Shown: positions 6,036-35,776, counted from the stretch's first letter. The stretch: DNA of 64,000 nt from Prorocentrum cordatum (GCA_963575745.1 CAUYUJ010000192.1:1-64000), one strand, 5' to 3'. Made by a program: numbers and translations. The notes: a model not told the origin generated them from the letters alone.

Positions 6036-6066
<31 letters not shown>

Positions 6067-6126: not shown

Positions 6127-6167
<41 letters not shown>

Positions 6168-6676: not shown

Positions 6677-9600
6677 ATGACGGGAGGGCGGATCGCTCGC
6701 CGGCGCGTCAGCGCCCAGGCGACTCGCGGCAAGAAGGCCCACTGCACCCGCTGCATGGGAGGCGTCGAGGCGGGCGAATGGCGCGCGGCAGGCGCCGTGA
6801 CGCGCCCCGTGGGCTCCCAGGCTCACGCGGGCAAGAAGTGGTTCCACATGGCCTGCGTGGATGGCCCCCTACCACCAGCGACGGCGATGGTGGGCTTCAC
6901 GCAGCTCCCCGAGGGTGACAGGGAACGCCTCACGGCAGCCCTGGAGGCCCGAGGTGGCCCCATCTTGCCCCTGCTGGAAACGGTTGAAGGCCGGCCACCC
7001 ACTCCTCCCTCCCAGGGAGATGGCGCGGCAGGGGGCGCCGGGGCCGCCCCGAGGCTCCCTGCCGCCGCCGCGCCAGGGGCGTATGGCCCAGGCTCACGAG
7101 GGACCCCCCTTGTGGCAGCCGAGGCAGCGGCGCCGTCCACGGCGGGCATCTTGCAGCCGCCACTCGACGCCCCTGCGGATGCGGACGATGACGCGGGGTT
7201 TGAAGCAGGCGTCTACGACGACTACCTGGACGATCAGGTGACGGACGAGGACGCGTACCACGAGATTGGCTTTGTCAATCTGGATTGGTGGGATGCCATC
7301 GGGTGGGAACGCATCCTGCTACAGGGCGCGCCCGCCACGGCCATGATCCCCGACAGCATGGCTGCCGCCGTTAGCCACGCGAAGGTGCGGCTGTGCCTAG
7401 CGATCGAGCAGGCCCGCCAGGGCAACGATGATCAGGCGTCGCGCACGCTGACGCGGCTGTGGAAGGTGTTCTTATCGTTGGATGGGCTGCTGTTCAGTGA
7501 AAATGCGACCCCGACCCCGACGACGCGGCGAGAGCGTCTTCAGGAGCGTTTGCAGTGGATTCAGGACGGCCAATGGGATGTCGCCCGGCTCTCCATGGAG
7601 GACCAGACGCGCACCTCGGTCACCACGAAGGGCCGCGAGGACCACGTCGCGGCCCGCGTTCGCCGTGCCACCGAGCTTGCACGAGCTGGCGAGATGTTTC
7701 GGGCGGCAGCGGCAGTGTGGCCCCAGGGTGACATGGCGGAAGCAGCGGCGGTGGTGGGGAAGTTCAGCGCCACCCAGCAGCCTGCGGCGCCTCGCCCAGG
7801 CGAGTGGGGCCCTCCCCCTGGCACTGACCGGGGGGGGGCCACAGTGGCGGGGGCCGATGTGGCGATGCCGCCAGCCACGCCCCCTCACGAGCTCAACGGC
7901 GCGGCAGAGCTCCACCACCGTGTGGCCAACCACCTCGAGCGTCAGTTTGGCCGCTTCCCCCGCCGCGGCGGGGCGGGGCCTGGAGGGGGGCGCTACGAGC
8001 ACTGGGCCCCGCTCAAGCACGACGGGGACGGGGCGGAGGCGGTGGCCAACACGCTAGCGCGCTTGGCCATCGGCGACCTTTCTCCCGAGGCTCTAGCCGC
8101 CCTGATGGCGGCGCGCCTCGCAGGCTTCCCCATGGCAACCCCTGGGGACGTGCGAGTCCTGGGCTGCGGGAATGTCACCCGCCGTATGGTGGGCCGCAGC
8201 GCTGCCAAGGTCCACCACAAGGACATGCGGGCGGCGGTGGGGGACCAACAGTTTGGCCTGGCCAAGGACGGATGTGGTGCCCTCCGCCGACGTCTCTGCA
8301 CGATGGCCAACTCGAGCCCAGGCAAGTGGGTGGTGGCGATGGACCTTGGGGATGCGTTCAGCAACATCCCCCGCGACCTCGTGAAGGAGGCCGTGCGCTC
8401 CAAGGTGCCCGCTCTGGCGCCGCTGGCGGAGGCCTGGCTCCCTGCTCGCACGCGCCATGAGGCGGGGGGTGGGTCCCAACCTGCCCAGCTGGTCGACCAG
8501 ATCCGCGGCCTCGACCAGGGCTGCCCGATGAGCCCAGGCTTTTACGCGGTCGGCACCGCGGATGTTCTCAGCATCGGTCGCATGGCCGTGCGTGCGGTGG
8601 ACGTCGAGGGGGATTGCCTGGCGTTCTTGGACGACACGTACTTCGTGGGCACCGCGGCCGCTGTGTTCCGCGGCTTGGATGCCTGGCGAGCCCGCATCGA
8701 AGCCCACGGGATGAAGCTGAAGATGTCCAAGACCCAGATCTGGTCCCCAGATCCCCACGCTGTCCCGCCGCCGGAGTTTGCAGAGTGCGCCCAGTACCGC
8801 GTCCAGAAGCTCAAGGCGGTGGGGTCTACCCTGGCCTGCGCAAACCACGACGTGGACGCCGACTGGAGGGGCGTCCCCCTCGCGGACTTTGCCGCCCCGG
8901 AGGACCTCGACGAGGGTGGCCTCGCGCCGGCTGGCGGTGCCGGGGCCGCCCCGGGCGCCGCCGCGCCACTCCCTTGCGGCGAGGCCTTCCTCCAGAAGCA
9001 GGACCGCTACTTCCGAGAGCTCCTGGCGCTCCGCACGCATGGGCTGTCGGCCTTTGACGCTTCCCAGTTGATGCGGATCTGGTCGAGGGGCGCCAGCGCC
9101 CACATCCAGCGGGCGCTCCCGCTCGCGGCGGCGTGGGGCCGCAGGGTGGACGACGGAGTGGTCGCCTTCGTCAACGCCCTTCTGGGGGTCACGGCTGCCC
9201 CCCGAGAGCAGATCTTCAGGAAGGTCAGCGACGGAGGTCTGGGCTGTGGCAGCGCCGAACAGCGCGGCCCCGCTGCCCTCCTGGCGTCCTGGGAAGCTGG
9301 GATCCACGCGGCTGCCCAGGAGCTCCGAGAGACGACAACGATCGGCTTCTTTCGGCGGTGGCCGGGCCTCGGCCTTGCCCTCTCGGCAGCGGACGAGGGG
9401 CAGGGGCGGCTGTCAGGAGGCCGTCGCCCCCAGAGTGACCGTTCGCAGGGCCTTCTGGTAGGGCGGAGGGGCAAGGGCCAGAAGACGTACACCCAGCACG
9501 TACGGGGCCACGCCACCAAGACGTTCTTGGCCGCGCTGCCGGCGACGGCGGCGGCGGCGGTGCATAGTGCCTCGGGCAGCTCAGCGGGCGCCTGGTTGGA

Positions 9601-10311
9601 TAACTTCGAGGGGGTTCGCCCCTCGCCGACCACGCGTTCTGCATTGCGGCCAAGAGGCGCATGCGTCTGCCGCTGCTGCAGTCCGAGTGCACGTGCCAGA
9701 ACCGACCGGCAGCGCCCACTCGCGCGACGGCGCAGGCCGGCCCGGCGCGTGGCCGCACGGTGGAAGTCCGTGGCGTTCATGCGCTCACTTGTCCCAGGGG
9801 AGGTGGCCCGGTGCGCCGCCACAACGCCATCCGAGATGCCGTGGCGCTCTGGTTGCGCGGTGTGGGCCACCGCGCCCTAGTGGAGCAGGTCATCCCAGAG
9901 TGGCGCACGGAAGAACAGGGCGCGGCCACACTGGACGTCGTTTACCATCGAGGCATCCATGGCCGAGTATGTCTCGACATCAGCTTGGTGGACGAGGTGG
10001 CCGTGGCCCAGACGGGACGGCCGCATCAGGCACCCCTGCGGCGCAGAGAGAAAGTGAAGCACCGTAGGTACCCATTTTCTGGCCTGGTGCCCTTTGTTCT
10101 CGATGTCAATGGCCGCTGGGGTGCAGAGGCGGAGACGTGGCTGCGCCGTGCCGCGGGGGAATTGCCCGAGGCCAAACGGCCCGCAGCGCGCTCATCCCTG
10201 CGCTCGGCAGTGGCCAACGCCCTGCAGGGCCAAATCGCTGAGCAGGTCGCCCTGGCGACGGAGGACGTAGTCGGGCTGGATTCCGGGGCAGCCCCGAGCG
10301 TCCGGTCTTGA
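6677..10311 (+). CDS. Non-LTR retrotransposon polyprotein (CRE-like, RLE type): PARP-type Zn finger, reverse transcriptase, CCHC knuckle, restriction-like endonuclease; one frameshift at ~9619-9622
   Basis: RT motifs: GPGGGRYEHW, VRVLGCGNVTRR, QFG, MDLGDAFSNIPR, GLDQGCPMSP, AFLDD, KLKMSKTQIW, GGLG. Adding one C to CCCC (9619-9622) joins ORF 6557..9880 to 9661..10311, which has C..HALTC..RRHNAIRD, LDVV..LDIS, REKVKHRRY and PFVLDVNGRWG. Start codon uncertain (6557, 6635 or 6677). Confidence 0.92.
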
Positions 10312-14170: not shown

Positions 14171-14774
14171 TCCCATGACTGTTCCCATGCCCGCGATGAT
14201 CCTTGCCCCACGATTTTTCATGACTGTTCTCATGAAAACACAGGAGCTGCAATCCAAGAAATCGCTTCCGCTCTGGCCGAGGAGTGGTTTTCAGACGCCC
14301 CCGGAGGCCCATAAACATGTCATTTTGGATGCCATCTTGCGCTCTAGCACGCGGCGCTCGGGCCAGGAAAAACACCCATTTCATAAGGAATATGCGGGTT
14401 CACCTTGTTTGTTGAACTTCTTGTATACCTGTATTCCTTACTTAGGCCACCCAGTGCCAACTTGGAGACCATCTTGTGCTCGAGCACGCGGCGCTGGGTC
14501 CAGCAGAAGGCTCAATTCGATAGTGGAATGTGCGGGTTCAGCTCATATGTTTATTTTCATAGGGAAATCTGCGGGCACAAGTTGTTTGTTGAACTTATTG
14601 TTTGGCTTGTATTCCTTCCCTGGGCTATCATGTCCCATTTCGGGGACTACTTTGTGCTCGAACGTTGTGCGCAGTTTTCTGCACAATGGTTCATTTCATA
14701 AGGGAATCTGCGGTTCGCTGGAAAAAAACATAAGGGAATCTGCGGGTTCAGGATTTTTACATTGTGTGTATTGT

Positions 14775-15000
14775 GCTATCCCTTGCAATATTGGATGCTA
14801 TCTTGGGCCATCCCTTGCAATATTGGATGCTATCTTTGGTCATCTTGGGCTATCCCTTGCAATATTGGATGCTATGCTGGGCCATCTTGGGCTATCCCTT
14901 CCAATGGTGGATTTTATATTGGGCTTTCCCTTGCAATATTGGTTTGCCTACGTGGGCTATCCTCTGCGATATTGGATGCTATCTTGGGTCATCTTGAATG
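14775..15000. repeat. Minisatellite (~33-43 bp unit, core GCTATCCCTTGCAATATTGGAT) upstream of the transposase
   Basis: About six degenerate copies read directly. Confidence 0.85.
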
Positions 15001-15074
15001 CCCCAGGATGCTGTTAAGAGGGCCCCAAGATTGCCCTGTGCTTCTCGCTCGGCGCCGCTCGTGCTTCTTTTTGC

Positions 15075-15096
15075 GCAGTAGACATTTTGGCTCAAT
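15075..15096 (+). other. Dinoflagellate spliced-leader relic abutting the transposase ATG
   Basis: GCAGTAGACATTTTGGCTCAAT matches DCCGTAGCCATTTTGGCTCAAG at 19 of 22 positions and follows a pyrimidine tract with an AG. Confidence 0.85.
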
Positions 15097-18000
15097 GTCC
15101 TCACGGGCGTCTCAGGTAGCCACTGCCTTGCGGGACCCTTTGGCTGACCCTGCTTCTCTGGTGCAGGCTTTCCGTCATGCGCAAGAGCTGACGTCTGCGT
15201 GCGCGTCGCTCGATGCATTGAGACAGTTGCTGGTGCATGAGGCGCTGGGCAGCGCATTGCGTTACTTTTCCAATAGGGTTGATTTGCCAGGCCACTTGCA
15301 GGAGCAAGCGAAATGCTTTATCAAAGAAGTTTCTAAGAATGCCCGGCAGCGGGGGCAAGGAGCAGCGCCTCGTGCTGCGGCGCCCATGCCCTGCGACATC
15401 CAGGTCTCTTCTCCGTCATCGCCGGTCATTGAGATCGCATGTCCCGAAGCCCGCAGCCTTGCAGAGTCGCCAGATTGCGATGTGGATGAACCCTCCCATC
15501 CAGAGGAAAGCGACGTTGAAGTCGAGATGCCCGTTGGCCCAGACAGCGCAGAGGAGCCGACCAGAGCAGCGCCCACTGCGACCGCGTCTGTTTTTGAAGT
15601 TCCCGGGGAAGTCGCACCTGGGCGAAAGTTGTGGGTGCCGACTCAAAGGGGTTGCCCAATCCACCCCCAGGCTGCCAAAGTATTGAGCAACGCTGCGGAG
15701 GTATTGAACCACTTATTGTCTGACGGGCCCGTAACCCAAGGCACCAGACGTGCAAAGCGCAAGCGGAAAGCTGAGCTGCGGGAGGCATCCTCCCGCGAGC
15801 TCCTTGCAGAGTTGGCTGGGCGACTCCATCTTCCACGGGGTTGCGCCAGGGGCGCTGGATTGTCGCATAAGTTTGTCTCTGGGTTGACGTGCGTCCCACC
15901 GCGGACAGTTCAGGACCTCCATCGGCAGTACTCTTCTGGTTATCACGTCCCTCAGGCCATCGACCCAAACGCCGAAGAAGAAACGCCGATGACCGATGTT
16001 TCCCAGACTGCCCGCACAGCTGTTGGCCGGGCGATCGCGTCCGCCGCAGTGGACGGGCGTTCCAGAGATTCCGTCGTCGAGGAGCTTAATCGGTTGAGAT
16101 TGAGCGGTTGTTCGTTGGGAGCCAAATTTTTGAATGCTAAGTTCGTGGAAGCTTTTGAGCATTGTTTGGCCCGTGTTGTGCGGAGCGAGCTCGCTGACAT
16201 CCTCGTTGCGGAAGTCCCTTCGATTGGCATCAGGTTCGACTTTGGCCTTTTCGCAGATTCTGGCACCATCGGCAAGGTATTCAAGAGCGTCCGAGCCACA
16301 GTGCTGATCATTGGGGCGATCGTGGCAACGCCAACGCATCCCACCGACGACGTTAGCTCGATCTTGCTCGGGACTCCACCTGAGGGGCACGACGGCGGGG
16401 GCGACGCGCTTTATCTTTGCATGGCGCGATGCTTGGATGAGACTCCGTGGAAGATCACCGTGGGGGCCGCGAGGTCATCTCTGGCGGTCGTGGGCGTCGA
16501 CGGCCAATACGCAGCGGGTGAGACGAGCAAGCATAACCACATCGATGTTTTTTCCCGCTTGTTCACTGGAATTGGCCGAGCTCCTCGTGTGAACTGGGGT
16601 CATTTCCATCGCGTCGACCATGCGGGTGTGAACGCTATAAAGGCATGCGTGACTGCTCGGAACTTCATGGCGCTCTTGCACGACTTGGAGTCCACGTTCG
16701 GCTGGGGCCAGGGGCGCCAGCTGCATCGGGGCGTGAACGATGTTTTAGATGCGCCCCAGCTGTCGCACAAATACCCAGGTGGAGTTCGCAAGTTTACATA
16801 CCTCACAGAGACGGCCCGCAGATTTCTGTTGAAGTTCAAGTCGTGGGTGCGGACGGTCGATGCCAGGAAACGGCACAGGGAGGAGGAGAAGCGAGGGACT
16901 CATAATCTGGAGTGGTGGAGTGATTTCACGTTGCGCGTATCGGACCTCACGACTATCATGTTCGCAGTCCTCATGGATGGGGCATTGCGCGCGTCGGGTT
17001 CCTACGCTCGACTCGTGCAAGAGACCTCTCTGTTGCCCTCGCGGAAGGCGCGCGGCACCGCATCCTTGATGCGCGCATTTCAAAGGATGTTGGCGGCCAG
17101 ATCCGCGATCGGACAGTTTTGCGACTTCATCATGTTGCTGATAGGGTGCGTTGGCAATGAGGATATCGAGAGGTTTGTTTTCTGCTGGGCTTTGTACAAA
17201 TGGGGCAATCTGTTTCCGATGCTCCCCCGGCGGTTGGCAGGCGCTCTAGCGCGCGGCACGATCGACGACGAGGACGTGTTGCTCGACCGCCCAGGGCACG
17301 TCCCGGGCCAGGAGGAGTGGGTGGAGGTCCACGCATCCTGCCAGTGCGGCAGCAGGAAGCGGACAGATCCACGTCGCGCGTGGGTTAGTTGTGGGAAGTC
17401 TCGCGTCCTTGCGCCCACTTGGGTTGCGCAGCACAAGCGTCTGACTCTGTCTGCCGCTCTGGATCAGGCGCCCATCCGGCGGCATTACGTCGGACGAATG
17501 CGCCTGCCGGCAAATCGACATTGCCGAGTCCGGGCTCCTGCATGGGCATTGGCAAAGATCAAGACTGCCCTCGCCGAGTTCGACGTTTTCGTTGCAAATT
17601 TGGTTTCCGAGTTTGAATTCTACGAGGGTGATGGGGGCACCACCCGAGCTACCAAACATTTTTTCGACGTTGTTGCCATTTGTTTTGCGCCGGAAAACAT
17701 GTCGGCCGAGGTATCCGACGATTGCGTGGCGGCTTTGGGCGAGGTATACGAGGTGGTCCGCCCAGAGTTGGAGCATGCGCTCTGGCCAGCGGCCTCAGTG
17801 GAATGGTCTTGGCTTCGTCGGCAGTGGCCTGCTTTCGGCGGCATTGCCGACCAGTACCGTGCCCTCTGCAGCAGATTGCATGCCCGCAGGCTGTCGTCGA
17901 CGCCACTTCTTCAACGCGGTGACTCGGCGGGCAGTTCTTGGCTCAAGGTGGGCGATTACTTCGTCGTGGACCTGCGGGCGTTGATGACTACCCTAGGCGC

Positions 18001-18520
18001 GGTTTGGCGCGGGGCCAGGGGTCTCCTTGCAAAGCCTGAGATTATCCGCGCTATCGCTTGTTTCGGCGGTCCGCGCGCAGCGTGGTGCAGCAGGGCAAGT
18101 TTGTTGGCCCCGAGGCCGCAGTCGGTCCCAGAGTGCTTGCGGGCCCACTGCGGGTCGCCTTCGACGTCATGGCGGAAAGGCTCCGTATGCCATGTCCGTG
18201 TTCGTGGCCAGTCGGTCCGACTAGCTGTTGTTGCGGACATGGAGATTCGCATTGACCACCAGTTGTTTTGCCAGACTCTTGAGACAGACAAATCTCTATC
18301 GCTGCACTGCTGGCACGTTGTCCGGCTGTGGCACCGCAGCCGGATGATCTTTACTGATTCTGAAGCGCGGGCGGAGAGTTGGCGCGGTTCTTTGTCTGGC
18401 TTGTGGGACCCGGTCCAAGGCTTATCCACGGCGACTTTGAGCGATCGGCTCTGTTTAAAATTGGCGGGCTTGAAGGGCAACGGACAGGATGACTACGTGA
18501 TCGCTTCGGCGTGGGCATGA
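15095..18520 (+). CDS. hAT-like DDE transposase (~1141 aa; may extend via a frameshift into 18511..19170)
   Basis: Uninterrupted ORF with hAT-ordered motifs: FGLFADSGT (D1, ~16256), LAVVGVDGQY (D2, ~16499), WGHFH in the CxxH position, GVRKF in the TRW position, and C-terminal SEARAESW..L..LS..TL.DRL (catalytic E / dimerisation region). It lies inside the TIR-bounded element. Confidence 0.8.
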   Translation: MSSRASQVATALRDPLADPASLVQAFRHAQELTSACASLDALRQLLVHEALGSALRYFSNRVDLPGHLQEQAKCFIKEVSKNARQRGQGAAPRAAAPMPCDIQVSSPSSPVIEIACPEARSLAESPDCDVDEPSHPEESDVEVEMPVGPDSAEEPTRAAPTATASVFEVPGEVAPGRKLWVPTQRGCPIHPQAAKVLSNAAEVLNHLLSDGPVTQGTRRAKRKRKAELREASSRELLAELAGRLHLPRGCARGAGLSHKFVSGLTCVPPRTVQDLHRQYSSGYHVPQAIDPNAEEETPMTDVSQTARTAVGRAIASAAVDGRSRDSVVEELNRLRLSGCSLGAKFLNAKFVEAFEHCLARVVRSELADILVAEVPSIGIRFDFGLFADSGTIGKVFKSVRATVLIIGAIVATPTHPTDDVSSILLGTPPEGHDGGGDALYLCMARCLDETPWKITVGAARSSLAVVGVDGQYAAGETSKHNHIDVFSRLFTGIGRAPRVNWGHFHRVDHAGVNAIKACVTARNFMALLHDLESTFGWGQGRQLHRGVNDVLDAPQLSHKYPGGVRKFTYLTETARRFLLKFKSWVRTVDARKRHREEEKRGTHNLEWWSDFTLRVSDLTTIMFAVLMDGALRASGSYARLVQETSLLPSRKARGTASLMRAFQRMLAARSAIGQFCDFIMLLIGCVGNEDIERFVFCWALYKWGNLFPMLPRRLAGALARGTIDDEDVLLDRPGHVPGQEEWVEVHASCQCGSRKRTDPRRAWVSCGKSRVLAPTWVAQHKRLTLSAALDQAPIRRHYVGRMRLPANRHCRVRAPAWALAKIKTALAEFDVFVANLVSEFEFYEGDGGTTRATKHFFDVVAICFAPENMSAEVSDDCVAALGEVYEVVRPELEHALWPAASVEWSWLRRQWPAFGGIADQYRALCSRLHARRLSSTPLLQRGDSAGSSWLKVGDYFVVDLRALMTTLGAVWRGARGLLAKPEIIRAIACFGGPRAAWCSRASLLAPRPQSVPECLRAHCGSPSTSWRKGSVCHVRVRGQSVRLAVVADMEIRIDHQLFCQTLETDKSLSLHCWHVVRLWHRSRMIFTDSEARAESWRGSLSGLWDPVQGLSTATLSDRLCLKLAGLKGNGQDDYVIASAWA

Positions 18521-19535: not shown

Positions 19536-19838
19536 GAGCCCGAGGTCGGAGGGGGGTTCGGAGCTCCCTGAAATCAGGGTTCAGCCTGAACCCTGATTTC
19601 AGGAGTTCGATTTCGCGAGCTCCTGAAATCAGGAGTTCAGGCTGAACTCCTCATTCCAGGAGCTCCGAACTTTGAGCTTCGGTGTTGTTTTCGCCGAAGC
19701 TCGAAGTTCGGAGCTCCTGGAATGAGGAGTTCAGCCTGAACTCCTGATTTCAGGAGCTCGCGAAATCGAACTCTTGAAATCAGGGTTCAGGCTGAACCCT
19801 GATTTCAGGGGGCTCCGAGCCCCCCCCCGAGCTCGGAC
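19536..19838. repeat. Near-perfect ~300-bp palindrome with nested hairpins
   Basis: Arms ~19536-19684 and ~19692-19838 are reverse complements. Each contains CTGAAATCAGGGTTCAG-n-CTGAACCCTGATTTCAG. Confidence 0.92.
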
Positions 19839-20352
19839 TTGTAATTTGCAGTCGTCGTCGCGCTTGCCGGGTTCAGCCTGAACCCTGATTTCAGGGGGCT
19901 CCGAACCCCCCCTCGAGCTCGGACTTGTCATTTGGAGTCGTCGTAGCGCTTGCCAGGTTCAGCCTGAAACCTGATTTCAGGGGGCTCCGAGCTCCCCCCG
20001 AGCTCGGACTTGCTTTTTGTTGTCGTCGTAGCGCTTGCTGGGTTCAGCCTGAACCTTGATTTCAGGGGACTCCGAGCCCCCCCCCCGAGCTCGGACTTGT
20101 AATTTGCAATCGTCGTCGCGCTTGCTGGGTTCAGCCTGAACCCTGATTTCAGGGGGCTCCGAGCCCCCCCCGAGCTCGGACTTGTAATTTGCAATCGTAT
20201 CGTCGTCGCGCTTGCTGGGTTCAGCCTGACCCCTGATTGCAGGGAGTTCGGAACCCTCTCTCGAGTTCGGACGTGTCCTTTACATCGTCGTGGCGCTCGC
20301 CAGTTTCAGCCTGAACCCTGATTTCAGGGAGCTCCGAGCTCCCCCCGAGCTC
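19786..20352. repeat. ~86-bp tandem repeat, ~7 copies, derived from the palindrome arm
   Basis: Core GTTCAGCCTGAACCCTGATTTCAGGGGGCTCCGA at ~19786, 19871, 19957, 20042, 20129, 20219 and 20304. Confidence 0.9.
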
Positions 20353-20359: not shown

Positions 20360-20512
20360 CTGTGTGTTTTGTGTGCGTTTTGTGTGTAAGTGTGTACGTT
20401 TGTGTGCGCACGTGCTCGTGCGTGCGTGCGCGTCGATTTGTGTTTAGGTGCATGTGTATATGTATATGTGTATGGAGTGTCTGTGTGCGCGCGCGTGTGT
20501 GTGTGTGTGTGC

Positions 20513-20546
<34 letters not shown>

Positions 20547-20576
20547 TTGCAAGTATATGTGTGTGTGTGTGTGTGA
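20360..20576. repeat. (GT)n microsatellite
   Basis: Direct reading. Confidence 0.95.
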
Positions 20577-21235
20577 TCGTCCGCGGGTCCCTCGGTGGGC
20601 CGCTTTGATGCCCCAGTGGCAACCGAAGGCGAGAGCTTTGGAAGGGGGCCCTCGCGTTCCCCAAGTTGTCCGGACTCCCTTGTCAAGGAGGGACAAAAGC
20701 TATTGTACTCTTGACGCGTCGCGTATCCCCACAGCCCATCCAGAACCGATCGTTTGACGACGTGCCCTCGTCATGGAAGTGAGGTGCGTGCAGAGGTTGA
20801 ACAGACAGGCGAGGCCCCGGTCACCCCGAAACTTTGTTTTTCAATGTTTTGGCTTGTCTGGGCATGTGAGAGGTCACCTTGAGCAATACTGAGCTATATT
20901 GGGCCGCGGTGGGGCGTATCTTTGTCTACCCGAGGTCCTCTTGGAGCCTTCTTGGGAGATATGAAGCTCCAGTCCTTCGCGTGGCCCCCCCTGCAGACCA
21001 AGGGGGGGTAGTCGGGCCCCCCGAAGGGGAACGCAGTAGGGGGCAAAGGGGGGTCGGAAGAGCACACTTCGAAGCCACCGCGCCCTAAAAGCCTGGAGAA
21101 TGTATAATGCTACACTGCGCAACCTCATTACATGGGAATCCTTTGCCGATTGCAGTTTTGGCTCAATACTTCATTCGAGTGCTGATGCATTCTTCAGCAG
21201 CGCCGGGGACTTCGAGCCGTCAGGTTGGCAAAAGC

Positions 21236-24200
21236 ATGACAGCCCCAGATATTGTCGACCACGGCTTTCGAGTGAAGCTAGATGAGATTTCCCTCGACGA
21301 TTCTTCCGGGTGGAGGCCCGCGCAGGAGGGCGTGGTTCGAGAGTTTTACAGTTCGTTTCAGAGCACTTACATGGCGACGTTGCATCGCCCCCCTCGGCTC
21401 CTGGTGAGTTCAACAAAGTCGCCGTTGGTTTTGATGATGGACTCAGTTGGGAAGTACATGCTCGACGACGGCAAAAGCACCATCAAGGCCCTGATGCAGT
21501 TAAAAGCAGAGTACGCGGCAGGTACTCTAGGGCCATGCTGCGAGAAGTTGACGCAAGTGTTGGTGTCAGGCGAGCTCGTTGTGCAAGCGGTGCATTGCCC
21601 ATCCGGTGACACTCTCGAGAGGTTCGCCTTCAATGCGCATGCTCACGATGAGGAGAACAACGCGTTCTTGCCGACTACGGTGGCCACAAAAATCAAACTC
21701 ATCAAGTCCATCAAAGCCACAGTTCCGGGTGGCGAGTGGAACTTGGTGCAGACTTGGCTCGAAGGGAGATGCGGCGTCGCCAAACGTTCCTCCATCAAGC
21801 GGACGATCACAGCTGCCAAGTGTGTGAGCGACCGCGTAGTGGAGTTTATCGACGAGAGGGCTGCCAGGCTTGGCGCAAAACACGGCATGACATCGGGCTA
21901 CATTCTCGGGAACGATTACTTTTGCGCCCTGGATGCTAAAAAGCAGAGTACCCGACTCAGCGATGAGGAGCAGCTCGTGGCAGTTACTGTCATGGCGAAG
22001 GTGCTCGACGATGGCGCCAGCCTCACGATCGACACTTTTCAGAAAGCGGTATGTCGGCCAATTAAGTTCGCTTGCGTGTGGGTAAAGCACGTTACCAACC
22101 AATACTCGGACGTGTTGGGCACGCCGGATGGCCACTCCATGAAAGGCGCCATCGACCGCACCCGTACCAATCCGCTCATGAACGATGGTTCGAGGGCCAA
22201 GGCCCGCAATTTGTCTAAAAAACGTTTCTTTTGGGCTTCTGGTTGAAGCCGCGTTGGAGTGGTAAGTTGTTTCCGCTTCAGGCTATCCGCGGGCCCGCGC
22301 CAGTCGTAGGGCCAGCGCTCCCTCGGGGGTAGTTGACCTTGCCCGACCCTACCCCGCAACAGCTATCGCATCGGGGTGTTGGCCTCTAGCCAGATTTTTA
22401 GTCGCTTGAACGCTGCCCCGCAGGTCGTCGAGTGCATCGCCACGAACCAGCAGCTGGCGCCCACGATTGTCGAGTGCGAGGTTTTGGTGGACTCCCTGAA
22501 GGCAGTGAGGGCTCGCTTGCGCGCCCCTGCTCTTTCGGCAAACGGCGGGGCCAATTGCGACGAAGCCGGCGACGCCCTCGACCTGGAGCTGGAGTCGATC
22601 GCGGTGAAGGGCGAGCAGGACAAGAGCAGAGTTGAATGTCGTGCCCCGGAAGAGCGGACAGCCGATGCGAAGGCACAGATGCACATGGACGCCGTCGCGA
22701 CGTTTTCCAGCCAGGCAGAGTTCAAGGCGGAGGTGGTTAGACGAGTAACAGATGCGCACACTAAGTCGGATTGGGTGATCTTGTTGGACGCGTCGAACAC
22801 AGCACGTCGCGTGCAGACCTCGTACCTCGAATTGATCAAGTCGTCCTTGTCGGAGAAGGTAACTGGCCGCATCGTCTGCATGGTCGGGCCCTCAATGGGG
22901 AACGCAGCAGCTTGCTCCGAGCAGATGGCGAGGCTATGGCCGAGGGCGAACGTGTACGACACCAAGGTGACCCAGGGCACCGAGCATGCCGACCGTTCCA
23001 GGGGGTCGCGCGGCGACGAGTACATTATCACCGTCGAACTGCCGAACGCGAAGAATGGGGCGAACGCCATCCCGCACATCCTCGTCACGACGTCCCGCGG
23101 CACCCCTTCGGATGCGGTGGTGGTCTCTTGCGACGGTGCGCGCGAGCACCTGCAGTAGAACCCCCGGGCGCAGGGCCAGCAGGGCGACGACGGCGTCCCC
23201 CCAGAGGACAGGGAGAACACCAACTTCGAGGCAATGCTGGAGGATATGATGCAGTCGGAGGACGGGGGCGGCTCGGGGAAAAAGATCCGGCGCTGGTCCT
23301 TCGCGCGCCCTTGTCGCGACGTACAGCGCAGTGTTGCGGCAGATCGGTCGGATCTCAGCCTGCAAGACGTGTATCATGGTCTCCTGCACGGCTTCCCCGA
23401 ATTCTATCCTCGCAGCGCACGCTGCTTATGCCGAGATGCTGATGGGGACCGGCCAGCACATCTTCGCGCTCGTCGACCGCCCGTCGGCCCACCTCCGATC
23501 GCACGGGCAACAGGCCCTGTTGACTGGGCTTAGGGCGGCATGCGCTCCGGCTGCTTCGAGCGCGTCCACGTCGGCCGGTTGTTTGTTGGAGAACTTGCAG
23601 TTGATCGTCGTGCCAGCTGCGTCCACCACCGTCGACATTGCTGACGTTTCATTCGCTGAGTCGTCTCCTTTATCGGGCATTGACATCACGGTGGACATCA
23701 GGGCGCGGGCGCGCGCGGCCTTCGCCATCGCTCTGAATTGCGCGGGTCCCCAGACCTCGTATATGCCGCTGCCGGGCCCCGCTCGGGCCCCGAGCGGGCC
23801 CTGGGCGGCATTGGGCCCGCGAGGCTTCCAAGGGGCCCCCCCGTTAGCTCGCGCTTTGGCGCGAGCCTGAGCGATAGCGAAGGCGGCGCCCGATGCGAAG
23901 GAAACATTTCCTTCCGTTGCGGGAGAAGGAGTCCATGGAGTACCAGCTCGTCACTCGGCCCGATGGCGACCATACTCGAGTCTATGCCAATGCGAACTTG
24001 TCCGAGGGCACCGACGTGGGCAATGCCACGCATATACTGTTCTCGACACGCGCGTCGCTGGAAGCTTTCTTGAAGTCTGCTGCTCGCCCCAGTCGCCGCC
24101 GGTTTGCCGATCGCTTGTTCAAGATTGACTCCGTCCTCTACGACGGCAGCGTCACGGCGCTGCACGGCGTGTTTGTCGGGATCGTGGGCGAAATCATGGC

Positions 24201-25227
24201 GCCGAACGCCAGCCAGCGCCCCGACGTCGAGCTGTGCGTCTGCCCCGGGGCTGGCATGAACCCTGGCTTGGTGAAGCTCCGCGTGAAAACCAGGAACGGG
24301 CTCGGCGTCGGCAAGAACTCAGAGCTTCTCCTCGATTACGGCGGCGACTTCAATCTCGCGCTCCCAGTGCTGGCAGGGGGGGCAGCAGAATCCATGAGGG
24401 GGCCTGTGGATAGACTCCTCGCCAGCCCTCCGAGCGCCAAGAAGCCTCGCATCGATTCCGCGCAGCGCGACGACCCCATGGACGTGGACGGCGCCGCGGA
24501 CCCGACCGCCCAGATTGAAGAGGGGGATGGCAAAGGGGCGCCAGAGCCACCGCCTGCAGACGCCGCGGCCCTTGCAACCCTCGCGGGTGGCGAGGGCGTG
24601 CCAGGAACGGCGGCCGCAGCTTCCCCCTGGCCCGATCTGTCCAAGTTCGGCAACAATGCTGTCGCGAAGATGGTGTGGGAGAGCGGACCTCGGGCGTATT
24701 GGCACGTCTCGTCCGATGCGTGCAAGCGTCTCTTCCTCGTTCGATCTGAGCCTCCTTTCACCGAGACTGCGCAGACCATCTTGGAGCAGTTCGTGGGCGG
24801 TGCGTGCGGGAAGTGCGACGCCTCTGATGACGGCCTGAACTTGCCCTTCAACTTGGCCTCGGACTCGCTCATCGTCTTCGACGGCGAGGTCATGACCTTC
24901 GAGGCGGCGTGGAAAAAGGCACTCAAGGCCAACCTGGGCATGACCATGTGGGGCTTCTATAAGGTGTCCGGCGCCGTGGACGCCGCTTCGATCGAGGCAA
25001 AGGTGACTATGCCCACATTGAACGCGTGCCGCTTGAAACCGAAGGCAGGCAGCACATTGATCGACATCCTTGCGCTTGTCAAGGACGGGGTCACTTTGAA
25101 GACCCGCGCCAAGCTCGTGCCCATGTGGCGAGTCAAGGATGGCCAGTTCTTACCTTTCGGGGCTGCGCTCGTCAATGTCAGGAGGCTCGTCGTGCCGCAG
25201 GGCACGCCGAGTGAGTTGTCCACTTGA
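21236..25227 (+). CDS. Transposon cargo gene (spliced, partly disrupted): ParB/Srx-like + HTH, amino-MTase-like fold, SET-like domain
   Basis: Exon 21236-22201 has GKYMLDDGKSTIKAL..HDEENN..TKIKLI..W..CGVAKRSSIKR. A phase-0 GC-AG intron at 22202-22423 follows. The exon from 22424 has an in-frame TAG (23156) and a one-base shift (~23311). A probable second intron lies at ~23702-23880. The last exon has RVYANANLSEG..RPDVEL..GVGKNSELLLDYGGDF. SL relic TTTTGGCTCAA at 21156-21166. Confidence 0.65.
22202..22423 (+). other. GC-AG intron, 222 bp
   Basis: AAG|GCCCGC ... CCCCGCAG|GTC. Splicing joins ORFs 21107..22246 and 22376..23158 in frame (GSRAK|VVECIA). GC donors are common in dinoflagellates. Confidence 0.65.
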
Positions 25228-26762
25228 CGTGGCTCAGGCCCGCAGGGGGGCTCACCGCTGCAGTTTTGAGGGCCCCCAGCGCTGGCCATGGCGTACTGTG
25301 CGCCCGCGTGCGTATACGCATATTTACAGACATGTGCGCGCCGCGTCAACGCCCAGGCCCGGGTTCTAGGACAACAAGGACGTAGACCAGGCCAGGACAA
25401 CAACAACAACAAAATCAGATCAACACAGGCCCAGGTTCTAGGGCAACAAGGACGTAGACCAGGCCTGGGCCTACGAACCGGCGTCGCCCAAGCAAACAAC
25501 AACCCACAGCGGTTGAACGAGTAGAAAGTCGCTCGCACCCTGCGTTGGCGACCCTCGTAGCAGCGATGATTTTGAAGCCCCGCTCGTTTTGACTCTGGCT
25601 CGAGGAGACGGCGCGCTGGCAGCGAGTCCGATGGAAACCGTATCGTCTGATGCTACAACTCCGCCCCCTTCTATTTGCTCTCCCGTTTCCCTTCGTCCTC
25701 CCCCGCGCCCCGCTGTGCTGCCCCCCGCCGCCCCCTGCCCCCCGCCCCCTCTCGCGGAAGCCGTGGCATTCGGAAGCCGCGTGAGAAGAGGCGCGCTTGC
25801 TTCGCAGTTCCGAACTATCTTGGGTCGTTTTTTTGATTGCGTTTTGGGCATCTCTCCCTGGCCCCCACTTCCTGGCCCCCAGCCGCGTCGAGGCGTCCCT
25901 GGCCGGCGGCCCAGGCGCGAAAAGGGAGCAGCGAGTCCGAGCCCGGCGATGGGCGCTGGCGGGGTCTCTCGGGAGGGGGGTCCAGGGCATTTTCGGGCAG
26001 GGCCGAGGAGGCGCGGGGGGGCGGGGGAGGGGTGGGCGGAGGGAGGGGAACAAGGCCCGCTGACAGCAACCGAGTTTGGTTGGCATCGTTCCAGTTCTCA
26101 CCAGAAGAGGCGAAGACACGGCATGAACGAATTCTGAACAGGGTCCAAAACATTCCTGCGGGTTCGTTTTGTATGTGTTATTGCGATCCCCATCCCATCG
26201 CCGATTGGACTCAAGTATGTCGCGTGGCTGCTCGATGTTAAATGTCGTTTGGTCGTCGGCCCGCCATCGCTGGCAGCATTAGTATTCAAGTGGTTTGCGC
26301 CGTTCCGCCGGCCCTCGGAAGAAGTGAACTTTGCGACGATCGTGGAAGTTTTCTAGTGGCCTTCGGCCCCATCCACCACCATGCCTGGACTCTGCGTCAG
26401 AAGCTTATTGGACGCATATATGGGGTCGCTTGAGATGCCTCTCAGTGGCTTCGTGTAAGTCTCCTAGGGGTATATGGGGGGAGGCTTCTGGGGGACTCTT
26501 GGGGGCTTCTTGGAGGCTTCTTCGGGCCGCCTCGGGGGCGCCTGTGGGGCTCTCGTGGCCTTCGCGGGGGGAAGATGTCAGCTTGTCTTCTCCCTCTTGG
26601 GCCCTTTCAGGGCCCCTCTGGGGCTGGTTTTGGGCCCTCTTGGCGGCCTCATGGGCCGTCTTGGGGCCATCTTGAGGCCCCCTTTGGCCGTCTTGGCCTA
26701 AGGCTTCCTTCAAAACCAGATTGCTCTGTTGACGAACCGCTTAAACGTAAGACCCCGGCATG

Positions 26763-28716: not shown

Positions 28717-28761
<45 letters not shown>

Positions 28762-28762
28762 C

Positions 28763-28804
<42 letters not shown>

Positions 28805-28840
28805 ATATTAGTAGTAGTAGTAGTAGTAGTAGTAGTAGAA

Positions 28841-28886
<46 letters not shown>

Positions 28887-28895
28887 CGTAGTAGC

Positions 28896-28930
<35 letters not shown>

Positions 28931-28965
28931 AGTAGTAGTAGTATAGTAGTAGTAGTATAGTCGTT

Positions 28966-29020
<55 letters not shown>

Positions 29021-29070
29021 AGTCGTCGTAGTCGTAGTCGTAGTCGTAGTCAGTAGTCGTAGTCGTAGTC

Positions 29071-29149
<79 letters not shown>

Positions 29150-29256
29150 AAGTAGTAGCAGTAGTAGTAGTAGTAGTAGTAAGTAGCAGTAGCAGTAGCA
29201 GTAGCAGTAGCAGTAGCAGTAGTAGTAGTAGTAGTAGTCAGTAGTAGTAGTAGTTC

Positions 29257-29299
<43 letters not shown>

Positions 29300-29344
29300 C
29301 AGTAGTAGTAGTAGTATTAGCAGTCGTAGTAGTCGTAGGAAGTC

Positions 29345-29431
<87 letters not shown>

Positions 29432-30373
29432 TGTGTCGTCGTCGACGTCTTCGCTGTCGAATCAGCGGTAACATGCGATGTTGGTGTGGCCGCGATAGAA
29501 GTAGACGCAACGGTAGCCGGAGCGGGAGGGGGAGGGAGTGGAGGAGGAGTTGCACGAGAAGGGGTGGGGGTATCAGGCCAGTGGAGCAGCGGGGGGGGGT
29601 CAGGCTAGGAAGATGCGGATGGGCGGGCCCGAAGGCCCCCGGCGCTCGTCCTGCTGATCGCTGAGAAGGCACCGCTCCCCCGGGGGGGGGGGGGGGGGGG
29701 CGACGCACGCCAACGCTAAAGCGAGCTGCAAGGAATGTATAAGAAAGCGGATTTGCGGAGGAGAAGGAGGAGGAGGAGGAGGAGGAGGAGGAGAGAGGAG
29801 AGGGAAAAACGGCAGGACGGGGAAGGACGAGGATGGGGAGGAGGACGGGGGAGGGGGGGGAGGAGGAGGAGGAGCGAGAGGAGGGAGGAGAGGAGGAGGA
29901 GGAGGGGGGGAGGCGGAGGAGGAGGAGACGAGAGGAAAAGGAGGAGGATGAGGCGGAGGAGGAGGCGGAGGAGGAGGAGGGATGAGAGGAGGAGGAGGCG
30001 AGGAGGAGGAAGAGGTGGCGTGTCGGAGGGGGTAGGGGAGGGGGAGGAGGAGGAGGCGCAGGAGGATGGGGGGGGGATGATGGTATGTGATGTGTGCTGT
30101 GATGACGATGACGAGATGATTTAATGATGATGATGATGATGATCATGATGATGATGATGAGATGGTGATCGATGCTGATGATGCCTGATGATGCTGTGAT
30201 GATGATGCGGACGATGCTGATGGTGTTGATGATGAGGGGGAGGAGGGGGAGGAGGAGGAAGAGGAGAAGGAGGCGGAGGAGGAGGAGGATGAGGGGGTGG
30301 GGAAGGAGAGGGAAGATGAGGAACAACAGCAAGGAGGAGTAAGATGAATAGTAGCAGTAGTAGTAGTAGTAGT

Positions 30374-30413
<40 letters not shown>

Positions 30414-30427
30414 CTAGTAGTAGTAGA

Positions 30428-30471
<44 letters not shown>

Positions 30472-30563
30472 CAGTAGTAGTAGTAGTAGTGGTAGTGGTA
30501 GTGGTAGTGGTAGTGCTAGTGGTAGTCGTAGTCGTAGACGTAGACGTAGTCGTAGTCGTAGTC

Positions 30564-30633
<70 letters not shown>

Positions 30634-30712
30634 AAGAAGTAGTAGTAGTAGTAGTAGTAGTAGCTAGTAGTAGTAGTAGTAGTAGTTAGTAGTAGTAGTA
30701 GTAGTAGTAGTA

Positions 30713-30783
<71 letters not shown>

Positions 30784-31051
30784 TGTAGTAGTAGTAGCAG
30801 TCGTAGTCGTAGTCGTAGTATTATTAGTAGTAGTAGTAGTACTAGTACTAGTACTGGTACTAGTACTAGTACTAGTACTATTACTCGTACTAGTACTAGT
30901 ACTAGTACTAGTCGTAGTAGTCTTAGTAGTCGTAGTAGTAGCCGTAGGAGTAGTAGAAGAAGCTGTAGTCGCAGTAGCAGTCGTCGTAGTAGTAGTAGTA
31001 GTAGTAGTCGTCGTCGCGCTAGTCGTAGTAGTAGTTGTCTTAGTAGTAGTC

Positions 31052-31083
<32 letters not shown>

Positions 31084-31112
31084 CGTTGTCGTAGTCGTAG
31101 TCGTAATAGTAA

Positions 31113-31180
<68 letters not shown>

Positions 31181-31468
31181 ATAGTAGTAGCAGTAGTAGT
31201 AGTAGTAATAGTAGTAGTAGTAGTAGTAGTGGTGGTAGTGGTCGTAGTAGTTGTCGTCGTAGTCGTAGTCGTAGTCGTAGTGGTAGAAGTAGTAGTAGCA
31301 GTAGTAGCAGCAGCAGCGCTTGTAGTAGTAATAACAGTAGTAGTAGTAGCAGCAGTAGTAGTAGTAGCAGTAGTAGCAGTAGCAGTAGTAGTAGTAGTAG
31401 TCGTCGTCGTCGTCGTCGTTGTCGGAGTCGGAGTCGGAGACGTAGTCGTAGTCGTAGTCGTAGTAGTA

Positions 31469-31500
<32 letters not shown>

Positions 31501-31615
31501 TGTTGTAGTAGCAGTAGTAGTGGTAGTAGCAGTAGTAGTAGTAGTAGTAGTTGTTGTTGTTGTAGTAGCAGTAGCGGTAGTAGTCGTAGTAGAGGTAGTA
31601 GTCGTAGTAGTAGTC

Positions 31616-31651
<36 letters not shown>

Positions 31652-31800
31652 TTTGTGGTAGTGGTAGTAGTAGCATTAGTGGTAGTAGTAGTAGTAGTAG
31701 TAGTAGTAGTTGTAGTAGTAGTAGTAGTAGTAGTAGTCGCCGTCGTAGTAGTAGTAGTCGTAGCAGCAGCAGCAGCAGTAGTAGTAGTAAGCGTGTAGGG

Positions 31801-31840
<40 letters not shown>

Positions 31841-32219
31841 GAGTAGTAGTAGTAGTAGTAGTAGTAGTAATAGTAGTAGTAGCAGTAGTAGTAGTAGTAG
31901 TCGTAGTAGTCGTAGTAGTAGTAGTAGTCGTAGTCGTAGTCGTAGGAGTCGTCGTAATCGTAGTCGTAGCCGTAGCAGTAGAAATAATATTAGTAGCAGT
32001 GGTAGTAATATCAGTAAGAGTACTAGTAGTAGTAGGAGTAGTAGTAGTAGTCGTAGTAGTAGTCGTAGTAGTAGTCGTAGCAGTCGTAGTAATAGTAGTA
32101 GTCGATATCGATGTACTACTAGTAATGGTAGTAGTAATAGCAATAGTAATAGTAGTAGATGTCGTGGTAATAGTAGTAGAAGTAGTAGTAGCAGTAATTG
32201 TAGTAGTAGTAGTAGCAAC

Positions 32220-32250
<31 letters not shown>

Positions 32251-32262
32251 ATAGTAGTAGTA

Positions 32263-32308
<46 letters not shown>

Positions 32309-32315
32309 TAGTAGT
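28717..32315. repeat. Degenerate (AGT)n tracts with an internal GAG/GAT-rich block (~29431-30350)
   Basis: Direct reading. Confidence 0.97.
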
Positions 32316-32415
32316 NNNNNNNNNNNNNNNNNNNNNNNNNNNNNNNNNNNNNNNNNNNNNNNNNNNNNNNNNNNNNNNNNNNNNNNNNNNNNNNNNNNNN
32401 NNNNNNNNNNNNNNN
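32316..32415. other. Assembly gap (100 N)
   Basis: Run of N; continuity across it is unverified. Confidence 1.
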
Positions 32416-34376: not shown

Positions 34377-35776
34377 GCGATCTGCGCAACTGTCGTCATT
34401 TTCGTGGGCTGCTGGGAGGCCCAGCGGAGGTACGTCCCACGCGGACCACCTCGGGACCTCGCCGCCCCCCGGGGGGCCTGCGATCTGCGCAATTGTCGCC
34501 ACTTTTCGTGGGCTCCTGGGAGGCCCAACGGAGTTACGTCCCATGCGGACCACCTCGGGACCTCGCCGCCCCTGGGGGGCTTGCGATCTGCGCAACTGTC
34601 GCCACTTTCGTGGGCTAGTACTTGAGTACAATCTGCACCAGTGGAGGTACGTCCCACGCGGATCACCTCGGGACCTCGCCGCGCCCTGGTGGGCTTGCGA
34701 TCTGCGCAATTGTCGCCACTTTCGTGCGCTCCTGGGAGGCCCAGCGGAGGTACGTCCCACGCGGACCACCCCGGGACCTCGCCGCCCCTGGGGGGCTTGC
34801 GATCTGCGCAATTGTCGCCACTTTCGTGGGCTCCTGGGAGGCCCAGCGGAGGTACGTCCCACGCGGACCACATCGGGACCTCGCCGCCCCCTGGGTGGCT
34901 GGCGATCTGCGCAATTGTTCTCACTTTCGTGGGCTCCTGGGAGGCCCAACGGAGGTACGTCCCATGCGGACCACCTCGGGACCTCGCCGCCCCCCAGGGG
35001 GCTTGCGATCTGCACAACTGTCGCCACTTTCGTGGGCTCCTGGGAGGCCCAGCGGAGGTACGACCCACGCGGAACACCTCGGGACCTCGCGGCCCCTTGG
35101 GGGGCTTGCGATCTGCATAACTGTCGCCACTTTCATGGGCTGCTGGGAGGCCCAGCGGAGGTACGTCCCACGCGGATCACCTCGGGACTTCGCCGCCCAC
35201 TGAGGGGCCTGCGATCTGCGCAATTGTCGCCACTTTCGTGGGCTCCTGGGAGGCCCAACGGAGTTACGTCCCATGCGGACCACCTCGGGACCTCGCCGCC
35301 CCTGGGGGGCTTGCGATCTGCGCAACTGTCGCCACTTTCGTGGGCTGCTGGGAGTCCCAGCAGAGGTACGCCCCACGCGGACCACATCGGGACCTCGCCA
35401 CCCCCCAGGGGGCTTGCGATCTGCGCAATTGTCTCCACTTTCGTGGGCTCCTGGGAGGCCCAGCGGATGTACCGGACCACCTCGGGACCTCGCCGCCCCT
35501 GGGGGGCTTGCGATCTGCGCAATTGTCGCCACTTTCGTGGGCTCTTGGGAGGCCCATCGGGGGGTACGTCCCACGCTGACCACCTGGGTACCTCGCCGCC
35601 CCAGGGGGGGCTTGCGATCTGCGCAACTGTCGCCACTTTCGTGGGCTGCTGGGAGGCCCAACGGGGGTGCGTCCCACGCGGACCACCTCGCCGCCCCTTG
35701 GGGGGCTCGCGATCTGCGCAACGGTCGCCACTTTCGTGGGCCCCTGGGAGGCCCAGCGGAGGTAACTCCCACGCGG
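34377..35776. repeat. ~103-bp tandem repeat, 14 copies
   Basis: GCGATCTGCGCAA at 34377, 34480, 34583, 34697, 34799, 34902, 35005, 35108, 35211, 35313, 35416, 35510, 35614 and 35709. Confidence 0.96.

Follow-up and report, generated by a model that had tools for sequence, protein, structure and literature searches.

The DNA considered here is a 64,000-nucleotide stretch from Prorocentrum cordatum (GCA_963575745.1 CAUYUJ010000192.1:1-64000), referred to below as the window, and our subject is a gene at its positions 21236-25227 which is predicted to encode a ParB-like domain, a methyltransferase-like fold and a SET-like fold in one polypeptide. Four + strand stop-to-stop frames follow one another at this locus (21089-22246 and 22337-23158 in frame 2, 23250-23870 in frame 0 and 23878-25227 in frame 1), and an earlier note, made from the sequence, had proposed that these four open reading frame (ORF) pieces could be joined by way of a clean GC-AG intron, one TAG, one frameshift and a likely second intron. 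The pieces do belong together, as seen in contigs from two sequencing runs (X2 and X3), in a homologous protein (P0009) and in the colinear profile of a protein family, and 21236-25227 is a single gene in which they are spliced together as three exons, possibly with a further small intron that would make a fourth. The predicted protein of approximately 1,190 residues runs from a ParB-type N-terminal domain with a helix-turn-helix (HTH) region through a beta-class methyltransferase fold and a SET fold to a beta-rich C-terminal domain, and the parts of the gene are as follows.

21236 to 22201, + strand: exon 1, with the start codon, the ParB-like N-terminal domain (SGWRP, LDDGKSTIKAL, HDEENN) and a helical HTH-type region.
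22202 to 22423, + strand: intron 1, 222 nucleotides (nt), GC..AG, skipped in the X2 and X3 contigs and joined in the same way in P0009.
22424 to 23699, + strand: exon 2, a linker and then the methyltransferase-like fold, whose two halves (approximately 22700-23130 and 23320-23500, domain limits in the window being approximate) stand on either side of an acidic linker, with HLRSHG after them.
23123 to 23206, + strand: 84-nt GT..AG segment within exon 2, containing the in-frame TAG at 23156-23158 and the place of a CxxxC motif (C...R in the window).
23311 to 23312, + strand: frameshift, one extra base (TT against T), frame 2 to frame 0.
23700 to 23898, + strand: intron 2, 199 nt, its cut ambiguous by 3 nt, skipped in the X2 and X3 contigs.
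23899 to 25227, + strand: exon 3, with the SET-like fold at about 23930-24380 (ending in ELLLDYGGDF), a low-complexity linker, the beta-rich C-terminal domain at about 24690-25212 and the stop codon at 25225-25227.

Eight sequencing runs were found for 21000-25400, none of them on record as RNA, and four were compared with the window; parts of the gene without cover in runs X1 or X6 were left out of the interpretation. X2 and X3 (from one study and the same coded organism) each gave one contig, of 3,700 or 3,706 nt and approximately 94% identical to the window, which aligned to 21190-22199, 22422-23699 and 23899-25308 and skipped 222 nt and 199 nt between them. These contigs begin 46 nt 5' of the ATG at 21236 and end some 80-90 nt 3' of the stop codon, which is the extent expected of an mRNA; as neither run is on record as RNA, the joined form may instead come from a copy in the DNA that lacks introns. 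Within the 3-nt ambiguity of the first skip, the ends of intron 1 can be placed at 22202-22423 to give GC..AG, and P0009 (695 amino acids (aa), 97% identical to the window) joins GSRAK to VVECIA at exactly this point. A metagenome relative, L001 (38% identical), does not have the 222-nt intron, its ORF being continuous there with a gap elsewhere. Removal of intron 2 joins ..DITVDI to RKHF.. in frame, and the family profile is colinear across it, piece E2c of the window ending at profile position 771 and piece E3 beginning at 790. The second intron that had been suspected is skipped in these contigs, though without canonical ends, as none of its four possible cuts is GT-AG or GC-AG in the window letters, and P0009 continues into the 199-nt region. 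Among the 40 of 297 differences listed between these contigs and the window, 20 of the 36 coding ones fall at third codon positions (binomial p 0.005), an excess which suggests purifying selection.

The frameshift and the TAG that had to be bridged in order to read the gene through were both compared with related sequences. The extra base at 23311 is absent from X1 (from both contig groups, at 3.99 and 3 of a depth of 6.99) and from X2 and X3, and P0009 reads WSFARPVATY unbroken. The TAG at 23156-23158 is genuinely present in the window letters, inside the 84-nt GT..AG segment that is missing from P0009 (SDAMV joined to DRENT) and retained in the X2 and X3 contigs, their state at the TAG not being among the differences listed. 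It thus either belongs to a small intron, which may be spliced alternatively, or represents a lesion of the window copy, and the second of these is supported by the content of the skipped segment, which encodes the place of a Cx3-4C motif kept in all 29 of the family members that cover it. At that place the second Cys of the window is an Arg codon, and a C to T difference at 23141 in X1, X2 and X3 restores the Cys. With a +1 frameshift, an in-frame TAG and a Cys to Arg change at an invariant Cys, the window copy is a decaying one or, in part, an assembly error. Readthrough of the TAG or a variant genetic code is less likely, since the alignment of the family, together with the frameshift and the replacement of Cys by Arg eight codons upstream, suggests that this copy is damaged or has a small intron.

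A search with exon 1 gave eight relatives, one of which (P0001) was 96% identical over 202 aa and the other seven 46-49% identical. P0001 is labelled by its source as Pyramimonas sp., a green alga, and is the only close relative with a name, so that the earlier suggestion of a lineage with minimal nucleosomal chromatin is not supported. All nine sequences of this N-terminal alignment (A1) share the start M.AP.IVDHGF as well as SGWRP, LDDGKSTI.AL and AHDEEN. An N-terminal profile searched against 1.84 billion representative proteins found 316 at E<=1e-3, of which 134 reach <=1e-10 and 25 reach <=1e-30, each representing a cluster at 50% identity; 17 of the best 150 of these 316 are at least 880 aa long, and the typical length of the family is about 1,000-1,300 aa. 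Architecture and motifs were counted in 155 stored members, most of which are short fragments. The SET-like region is reached by 16 of the 155, and all 16 also have the ParB-like part and both methylase-like halves, nine of them with the C-terminal domain too; in L001 the ParB-like and methylase-like parts likewise lie within one gene.

The window pieces themselves follow this order. A profile built from 17 long homologues, with the window left out, matched piece E1 with 234 bits (profile positions 9-292), E2a with 51 bits (332-565), E2c with 47 bits (653-771) and E3 with 120 bits (790-1155), where the best of 400 shuffles per piece did not exceed 6.0 bits; the 50-residue linker piece E2b scored just 3.2 bits. 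In blastp, exon 3 found 15 long members, with matches around residues 800-1000 of each (E 2e-17 to 3e-4), and exon 2c matched three, and a word-indexed protein search with exon 3 gave no relatives among proteins of similar or greater length, the relatives being detected solely through the N-terminal profile. The gene is one copy of a large, multi-copy, fast-diverging and unnamed family which is widespread in eukaryote-derived sequence. One candidate bacterial relative, L004 (a 3-kb contig in a bin labelled Victivallales bacterium, and the only match in a scan of genome contigs), was discarded, since its positions 1-2738 are 99.7% identical to 2286-5018 of the metagenome locus L002; it is probably the same element as L002, binned with bacterial contigs.

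Fold searches used a model of the homologue P0080 (1154 aa), folded by AlphaFold with a 143-row alignment that included the window pieces, with a mean predicted local distance difference test score (pLDDT) of 85.9 and 784 of the 1154 residues at 90 or above. Foldseek against the PDB matched the model to three folds, all with a probability of at least 0.97: beta-class methyltransferases (TTHA0409 at E 1.5e-4, then M1.HpyAVI, CcrM, M.BceJIV, RsrI, MboIIa and the rotifer N4CMT), SET proteins (SETD8 at E 6.1e-4, SUV420H1, and vSET with TMt 0.67) and ParB proteins (ParB-CDP 6sdk_A at E 2.3e-3 and probability 0.99, and Noc, the range for these being E 2.3e-3 to 1.2e-2 and probability 0.97-0.99). In a Foldseek-independent scan of 48,161 chains, ranks 1-11 were all beta-class methyltransferases and rank 12 was SET8. 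VIA-align on the Foldseek matches gave a Z of 13.9 to M1.HpyAVI (root mean square deviation (rmsd) 3.9, 188 of 204 residues aligned, model 416-699) and 13.6 to CcrM (rmsd 3.9, 200 aligned, model 415-705), and in the independent scan the beta-class matches were colinear over residues 406-712, with EcoP15I Mod at 13.2, MboIIa at 12.7, RsrI at 12.4 and PvuII at 12.1, including the permuted order in which motif IV precedes motif I; the rotifer N4CMT (PDB 8s9n and related entries) gave Z 10.6-11.0. For the SET-like region, residues 776-926, Z was 10.1 both to MLL1 and to SET8 (1zkk_A, rmsd 3.5, 125 of 160 aligned, model 777-926).

Among viral structures (BFVD), the top matches of P0080 were phage proteins named ParB/Sulfiredoxin, of 400-500 aa, with some 740 aligned columns spanning the ParB and methylase parts (A0A6J5MMM5 at E 5.7e-6), followed by Pandoravirus and phage N4-cytosine (N4C) methylases. 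No fold match was seen for the C-terminal beta-rich domain (P0080 984-1154), the match lists being occupied by the other domains, and the ESM Atlas gave best scores of at most 0.79, which are unusable. Together with the colinear matches of the window pieces, the modelled folds indicate that the family protein very probably combines ParB-HTH, a beta-class amino-methyltransferase fold and a SET fold in one chain, as the earlier note had proposed.

The motif places named in that note also agreed with the family alignment. LLDASNT lies at the DPPY (motif IV) place after strand beta4, where the family mostly has DAPTSK, and WSFARPVATY..VSCTASPNSILAA lies at the motif X and motif I place (strand-1, loop and helix), the family forms being DLWPFA....Y and h.v..TaHP...LA. 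The catalytic and S-adenosylmethionine (SAM) binding motifs had been called degenerate, and whether any homologue retains them was checked: of the 38 members that cover motif IV none has [DNS]PP[YFW] there (DAPTSK in nine, EAPTSK in four, DASNTA in the window), and of the 20 that cover the SAM loop none has FxGxG (typically T[AS]HP[SGA], CTASPN in the window). Two DPPY-like strings were matched by regular expression in the 155 proteins, both in the N-terminal region, and the Pfam model PF01555 matched neither the window pieces nor 25 long members. As DPPY and FxGxG are absent family-wide, DNA methylation by the middle domain is doubtful, and the module is probably not an N6-adenine (N6A) or N4C methyltransferase. 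It keeps invariants of its own, namely the F-A of WPFA, two Cys (Cx3-4C, 29/29 members covering the site; window 23129-23143, P0080 C555 and C560), the P of HP, and H..HG (17 of 18 members; P0080 H688 and H692), and so it probably has another role, for example in DNA or structural binding; that the conserved Cys and His form a zinc site is speculation. At the end of the SET fold the window has ELLLDYG, in the place of the C-terminal SET motif and in agreement with its ELxxDY pattern, which carries the catalytic Tyr and takes the form EELxYDYG in SET8.

Upstream of the gene lies a feature which may bear on the ParB-like part.

19537 to 20352, no strand: inverted repeat and array, the 146-nt inverted repeat being 19537-19682 against 19694-19839 (95%) and the array an 85-bp unit x 6.6 at 19783-20352.

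Each 85-bp unit holds the palindromes GGGTTCAGnCTGAACCC and GGGGCTCnGAGCCCC, three units gave fold z-scores of -2.4, -1.2 and -2.7, and from the end of the array to the start codon downstream is a distance of 884 nt. In L002 (30% identical to the window) a 41-bp x 29 array of palindrome-bearing units at 1508-2684 ends approximately 130 nt before the ParB-like ORF, so that arrays stand upstream in both of the two independent loci with at least 1 kb of upstream DNA, L003 and L004 being further records of the L002 element. The upstream array is a possible candidate for the binding site of the ParB-like domain. A (GT)n microsatellite at 20477-20575 lies between the array and the start codon, and another is found at 2-63 of L001, directly upstream of the start.

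The locus as a whole is best explained, and we consider this fairly likely, by one three-exon ParB/methylase-like/SET gene which belongs to a multi-copy family and has an accessory-like role; that the protein has the same kind of function as accessory proteins encoded by DNA transposons of algae is, as a claim on its own, slightly favoured. A mechanism can be outlined, doubtful in the form stated, in which the ParB/HTH module would bind the DNA of its own element, perhaps at the palindrome-bearing array just upstream, and the bound protein would bring its C-terminal modules to the chromatin of the element. There the methylase-like module would carry out no N6A or N4C methylation and would serve otherwise, such as in DNA or structural binding, and the SET-like module would act as a writer. 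A bolder version, which we regard as rather improbable, is that of a eukaryotic element with phage-derived, partition-like self-marking, where a ParB-type clamp on its own array, a methylase fold acting as a possibly zinc-stabilised reader of DNA or bases, and a divergent SET writer would set or shield the chromatin of its own copies.

Several observations count against this explanation of the locus. Besides the possible DNA origin of the X2 and X3 contigs, the folds come from a homologue and not from the window protein, P0080 sharing just 15-26% identity with the window pieces (alignment A2), and a model of the window N-terminal piece from nine sequences had a pLDDT of 52.7, too poor to search with. 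In the Foldseek-independent scan the ParB matches of P0080 were PadC at Z 7.7 (model 8-146) and pNOB8 ParB-N at Z 7.4 (207 of 250 aligned, model 2-278), values in the range that the tool itself calls common for unrelated folds; these borderline scores are backed by the Foldseek probability, the viral library matches and the motif pattern. The canonical ParB nucleotide-binding motif is arginine-rich, of the GERRxR type, and at its place the family reads DGK[HS]T (DDGKST in the window) with no arginine-rich motif, the ENxxR-like place reading HDEENN. No ParB-type Pfam model matched the window piece or the nine A1 members (E<=1) or the 25 long members (E<=0.01). More widely, the window pieces were unmatched in Pfam (at E<=1), PHROGs and NCBIfam beyond sub-threshold noise, no Pfam family was found for the nine A1 members at E<=1, the 25 long members gave two sub-threshold rows alone at E<=0.01, and no meaningful match was obtained among PDB sequences, whether the query was an individual piece or one of the profiles A1, A2 and A3 (the A2 profile having 417 positions, of the N-terminal part alone). 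The array may also be coincidence, since the seven long-period arrays of the 64-kb window imply a chance of roughly one in five per locus.

The remaining objections concern mobility. The gene had been taken for transposon cargo linked to a transposase, and this is not shown in the window: low-complexity matches aside, a search of the whole 64 kb gave no inverted repeats on the two sides of the gene, target duplications were not found, and direct repeats around it are only low-complexity or short ones, although an element could extend beyond the window or have short termini. The presumed transposase may be the following frame.

14702 to 18520, + strand: upstream ORF of 1272 codons.

It is not recognisable as a transposase, having no match in Pfam, PHROGs or NCBIfam (E<=1) or among PDB sequences, and neither it nor the other neighbouring ORFs showed similarity to the loci L001-L003 or to the 155 family proteins, the relatives' loci being at most 5 kb and too short for linkage.

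The likeliest of the alternatives, still a doubtful one, is a pure DNA-binding or scaffold protein in which the methylase-like and SET-like modules are both pseudoenzymes, and in which ParB-type DNA binding and bridging would, for example, hold element DNA or excised copies together or shield them from silencing. The loss of DPPY and FxGxG described above is what such a protein would show, and the SET-like module is degenerate too: at the place of NH(S), the SAM-binding motif of SET domains, no member has N-H, the N being absent in all, with H kept in 8 of 16 (MHS in two, QH in five, RH in one) and MAP in the window where relatives have MHS, and the aromatic of D-Y-G is Y in six, F in seven and other in three (L in two, C in one) of the 16. 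The Pfam model PF00856 matched neither the window piece nor the 25 long members. However, the SET fold is well preserved, at Z 10.1, the ELLLDYG of the window agrees with the canonical SET motif, and the invariant residues of both modules speak of a constraint beyond mere folding. The SET-like module, with ELLLDYG kept in this copy, is the likelier writer of the two, though its NH(S) place is degenerate.

A second alternative is that of a host chromatin gene family, perhaps a phage or transposon gene domesticated long ago, which expanded as paralogues and of which the window copy is decaying. The missing terminal inverted repeats and the lack of a recognisable transposase nearby would suit it, as would the introns of the gene, the joined form seen in a related copy and the excess of third-position differences. 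Against it, run X1 gave 30 contigs on the gene, of which 11 were 99% or more identical to the window, nine 95-99%, five 90-95% and five below 90%; five of them carry one common variant at 21429-21431, and individual sites show more than two forms or otherwise several variants. Although a mixed sample is possible for X1, its contigs point to a multi-copy gene with several diverged copies in one run. The window copy is also lesioned, the 316 clusters at 50% identity make for a large family that diverges fast, proteins with domains in common with it have been published from within transposons, and transposon genes may likewise carry introns and be under selection. We regard a host family as unlikely; a repetitive or mobile nature is plausible, being favoured by the X1 copies, the lesions, a repeat-rich region with a reverse transcriptase, and the transposon-borne proteins of shared domains.

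A remnant of an integrated virus (a giant virus, or one virophage-like or phage-derived) rather than a transposon is very improbable. Phages typically have ParB-methylase fusions, and the SET protein vSET is encoded by a virus; the match to vSET would fit with such an origin, as would those to phage ParB/Sulfiredoxin proteins and Pandoravirus N4C methylases, the best among viral structures. Against it, the introns of the gene are of spliceosomal type, the 16 large ORFs scanned included no further virus-like gene, the sole match there being the reverse transcriptase, and when 2.9 million viral contigs were scanned with a pattern, none of the 98 candidate stretches was confirmed as a relative. 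As for the prokaryotic ancestry that had been put forward, descent of the ParB-methylase pair from phage-like proteins is plausible, given the matches over some 740 columns. Finally, GC-rich DNA yields many long open frames on both strands, but the notion that these are unrelated or chance ORFs is refuted by the colinear profile matches far above the shuffles, the 16 of 16 long homologues and the joining contig of a relative, and its probability is negligible.

The surroundings of the gene are rich in repeats. A reverse-transcriptase ORF of 1124 codons at 6506-9880 on the + strand (PF00078, E 1.3e-11) marks a retroelement about 11 kb upstream of the gene. Very long microsatellites occupy 4722-6285 (GTA, approximately 520 copies), 28717-29430 (AGT, approximately 237), 30349-32315 (TAG, approximately 655) and 59082-60419 (GGT, approximately 443), and a 100-N assembly gap at 32316-32415 directly follows the TAG run. 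At the start of the window a 174-bp x 2.4 array recurs at 226-635, 2078-2487 and 3852-4261 with a spacing of about 1.8 kb, which suggests a higher-order tandem repeat, and a 103-bp unit x ~11 at 34377-35776 (periods of 206 and 411 bp also scored) overlaps long open frames on both strands.

Proteins comparable to that of the window gene have been described in algal transposons. PAG2, from a Plavaka element of Bostrychia moritziana, has PF01555 and a SET domain, PAG3 has a ParB-like domain by HHpred (E 0.29) and a 2-oxoglutarate (2OG) oxygenase, with tandem inverted-repeat arrays beside the gene, and these Plavaka accessory genes move among Plavaka, Mutator, Zisupton and Fanzor-bearing elements (bioRxiv 10.1101/2025.02.11.637652). 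As the available text of that preprint describes it, PAG2 resembles the window gene in having an amino-methylase domain followed by SET in one protein, and is carried by a transposon, but it is visible to Pfam (PF01555, PF00856) and no ParB part is described, whereas the window family is Pfam-silent, has ParB/HTH in front and lacks DPPY and FxGxG; the two are set apart here by description. PAG3, from the same text, is similar in its N-terminal ParB-like domain, found through remote homology only, and in the arrays beside the gene, as at the window and L002, but its partner is a 2OG-dependent oxygenase and not a methylase-like fold with SET. In Ectocarpus, the 21.5-kb transposon Sola1-1_Ec32 encodes an accessory protein of 1104 aa with ParB-like and N4C/N6A methylase parts (PMC12477816). 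It is similar to the window family in length and in its ParB/methylase combination, and no SET domain is reported for Sola1 in the available text, the comparison being by description only.

Older relatives of the ParB-methylase pair are also on record. A ParB-HTH and 'chlorophyte-type Dam' family of phage origin is described from chlorophytes and chytrids (Iyer et al. 2015, PMC4738411). It is a eukaryotic ParB-HTH and adenine methylase combination like the window gene, but as far as the available text describes it belongs to an EcoKI/TaqI-like group (the Dam/DpnM clade), whereas the window family has PF01555-type beta-class matches (CcrM, RsrI, PvuII) and SET after them. The phage ParB-methyltransferase fusions have the same domain order as the window gene, but are proteins of 400-500 aa from prokaryotic viruses, without SET or the C-terminal domain. 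Canonical methylase motifs are usual in them. The N4CMT of bdelloid rotifers is a eukaryotic protein with the same beta-class amino-methylase fold, at the Z-scores to P0080 given above, whereas the window family has lost the motifs; the rotifer enzyme is reportedly active, with canonical motifs and a chromodomain, and is said to mark transposons and to work with H3K9 methylation.

A single ParB-methylase-SET polypeptide was not found described in the literature searched, the supplements of the algal papers lying outside the search, and the Bostrychia preprint alone combines the topics. In our analysis, the window family resembles the recently described algal transposon accessory proteins, and what appears new in it is the triple fusion, the invisibility to Pfam and the family-wide loss of methylase motifs. 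It is only recently, and in red and brown algae, that transposon proteins which bind and modify the chromatin of their own element have come to notice, all of them still awaiting bench work; the family offers a defined and testable example of how eukaryotes may rebuild a ParB-methylase module of phage type, with a candidate binding array adjoining the gene, and shows that current domain libraries miss such accessory genes. If the self-marking reading were true, its clusters, at least 316 in number, would make up a widespread class of chromatin effectors, not recognised before, that transposons carry in marine protists.

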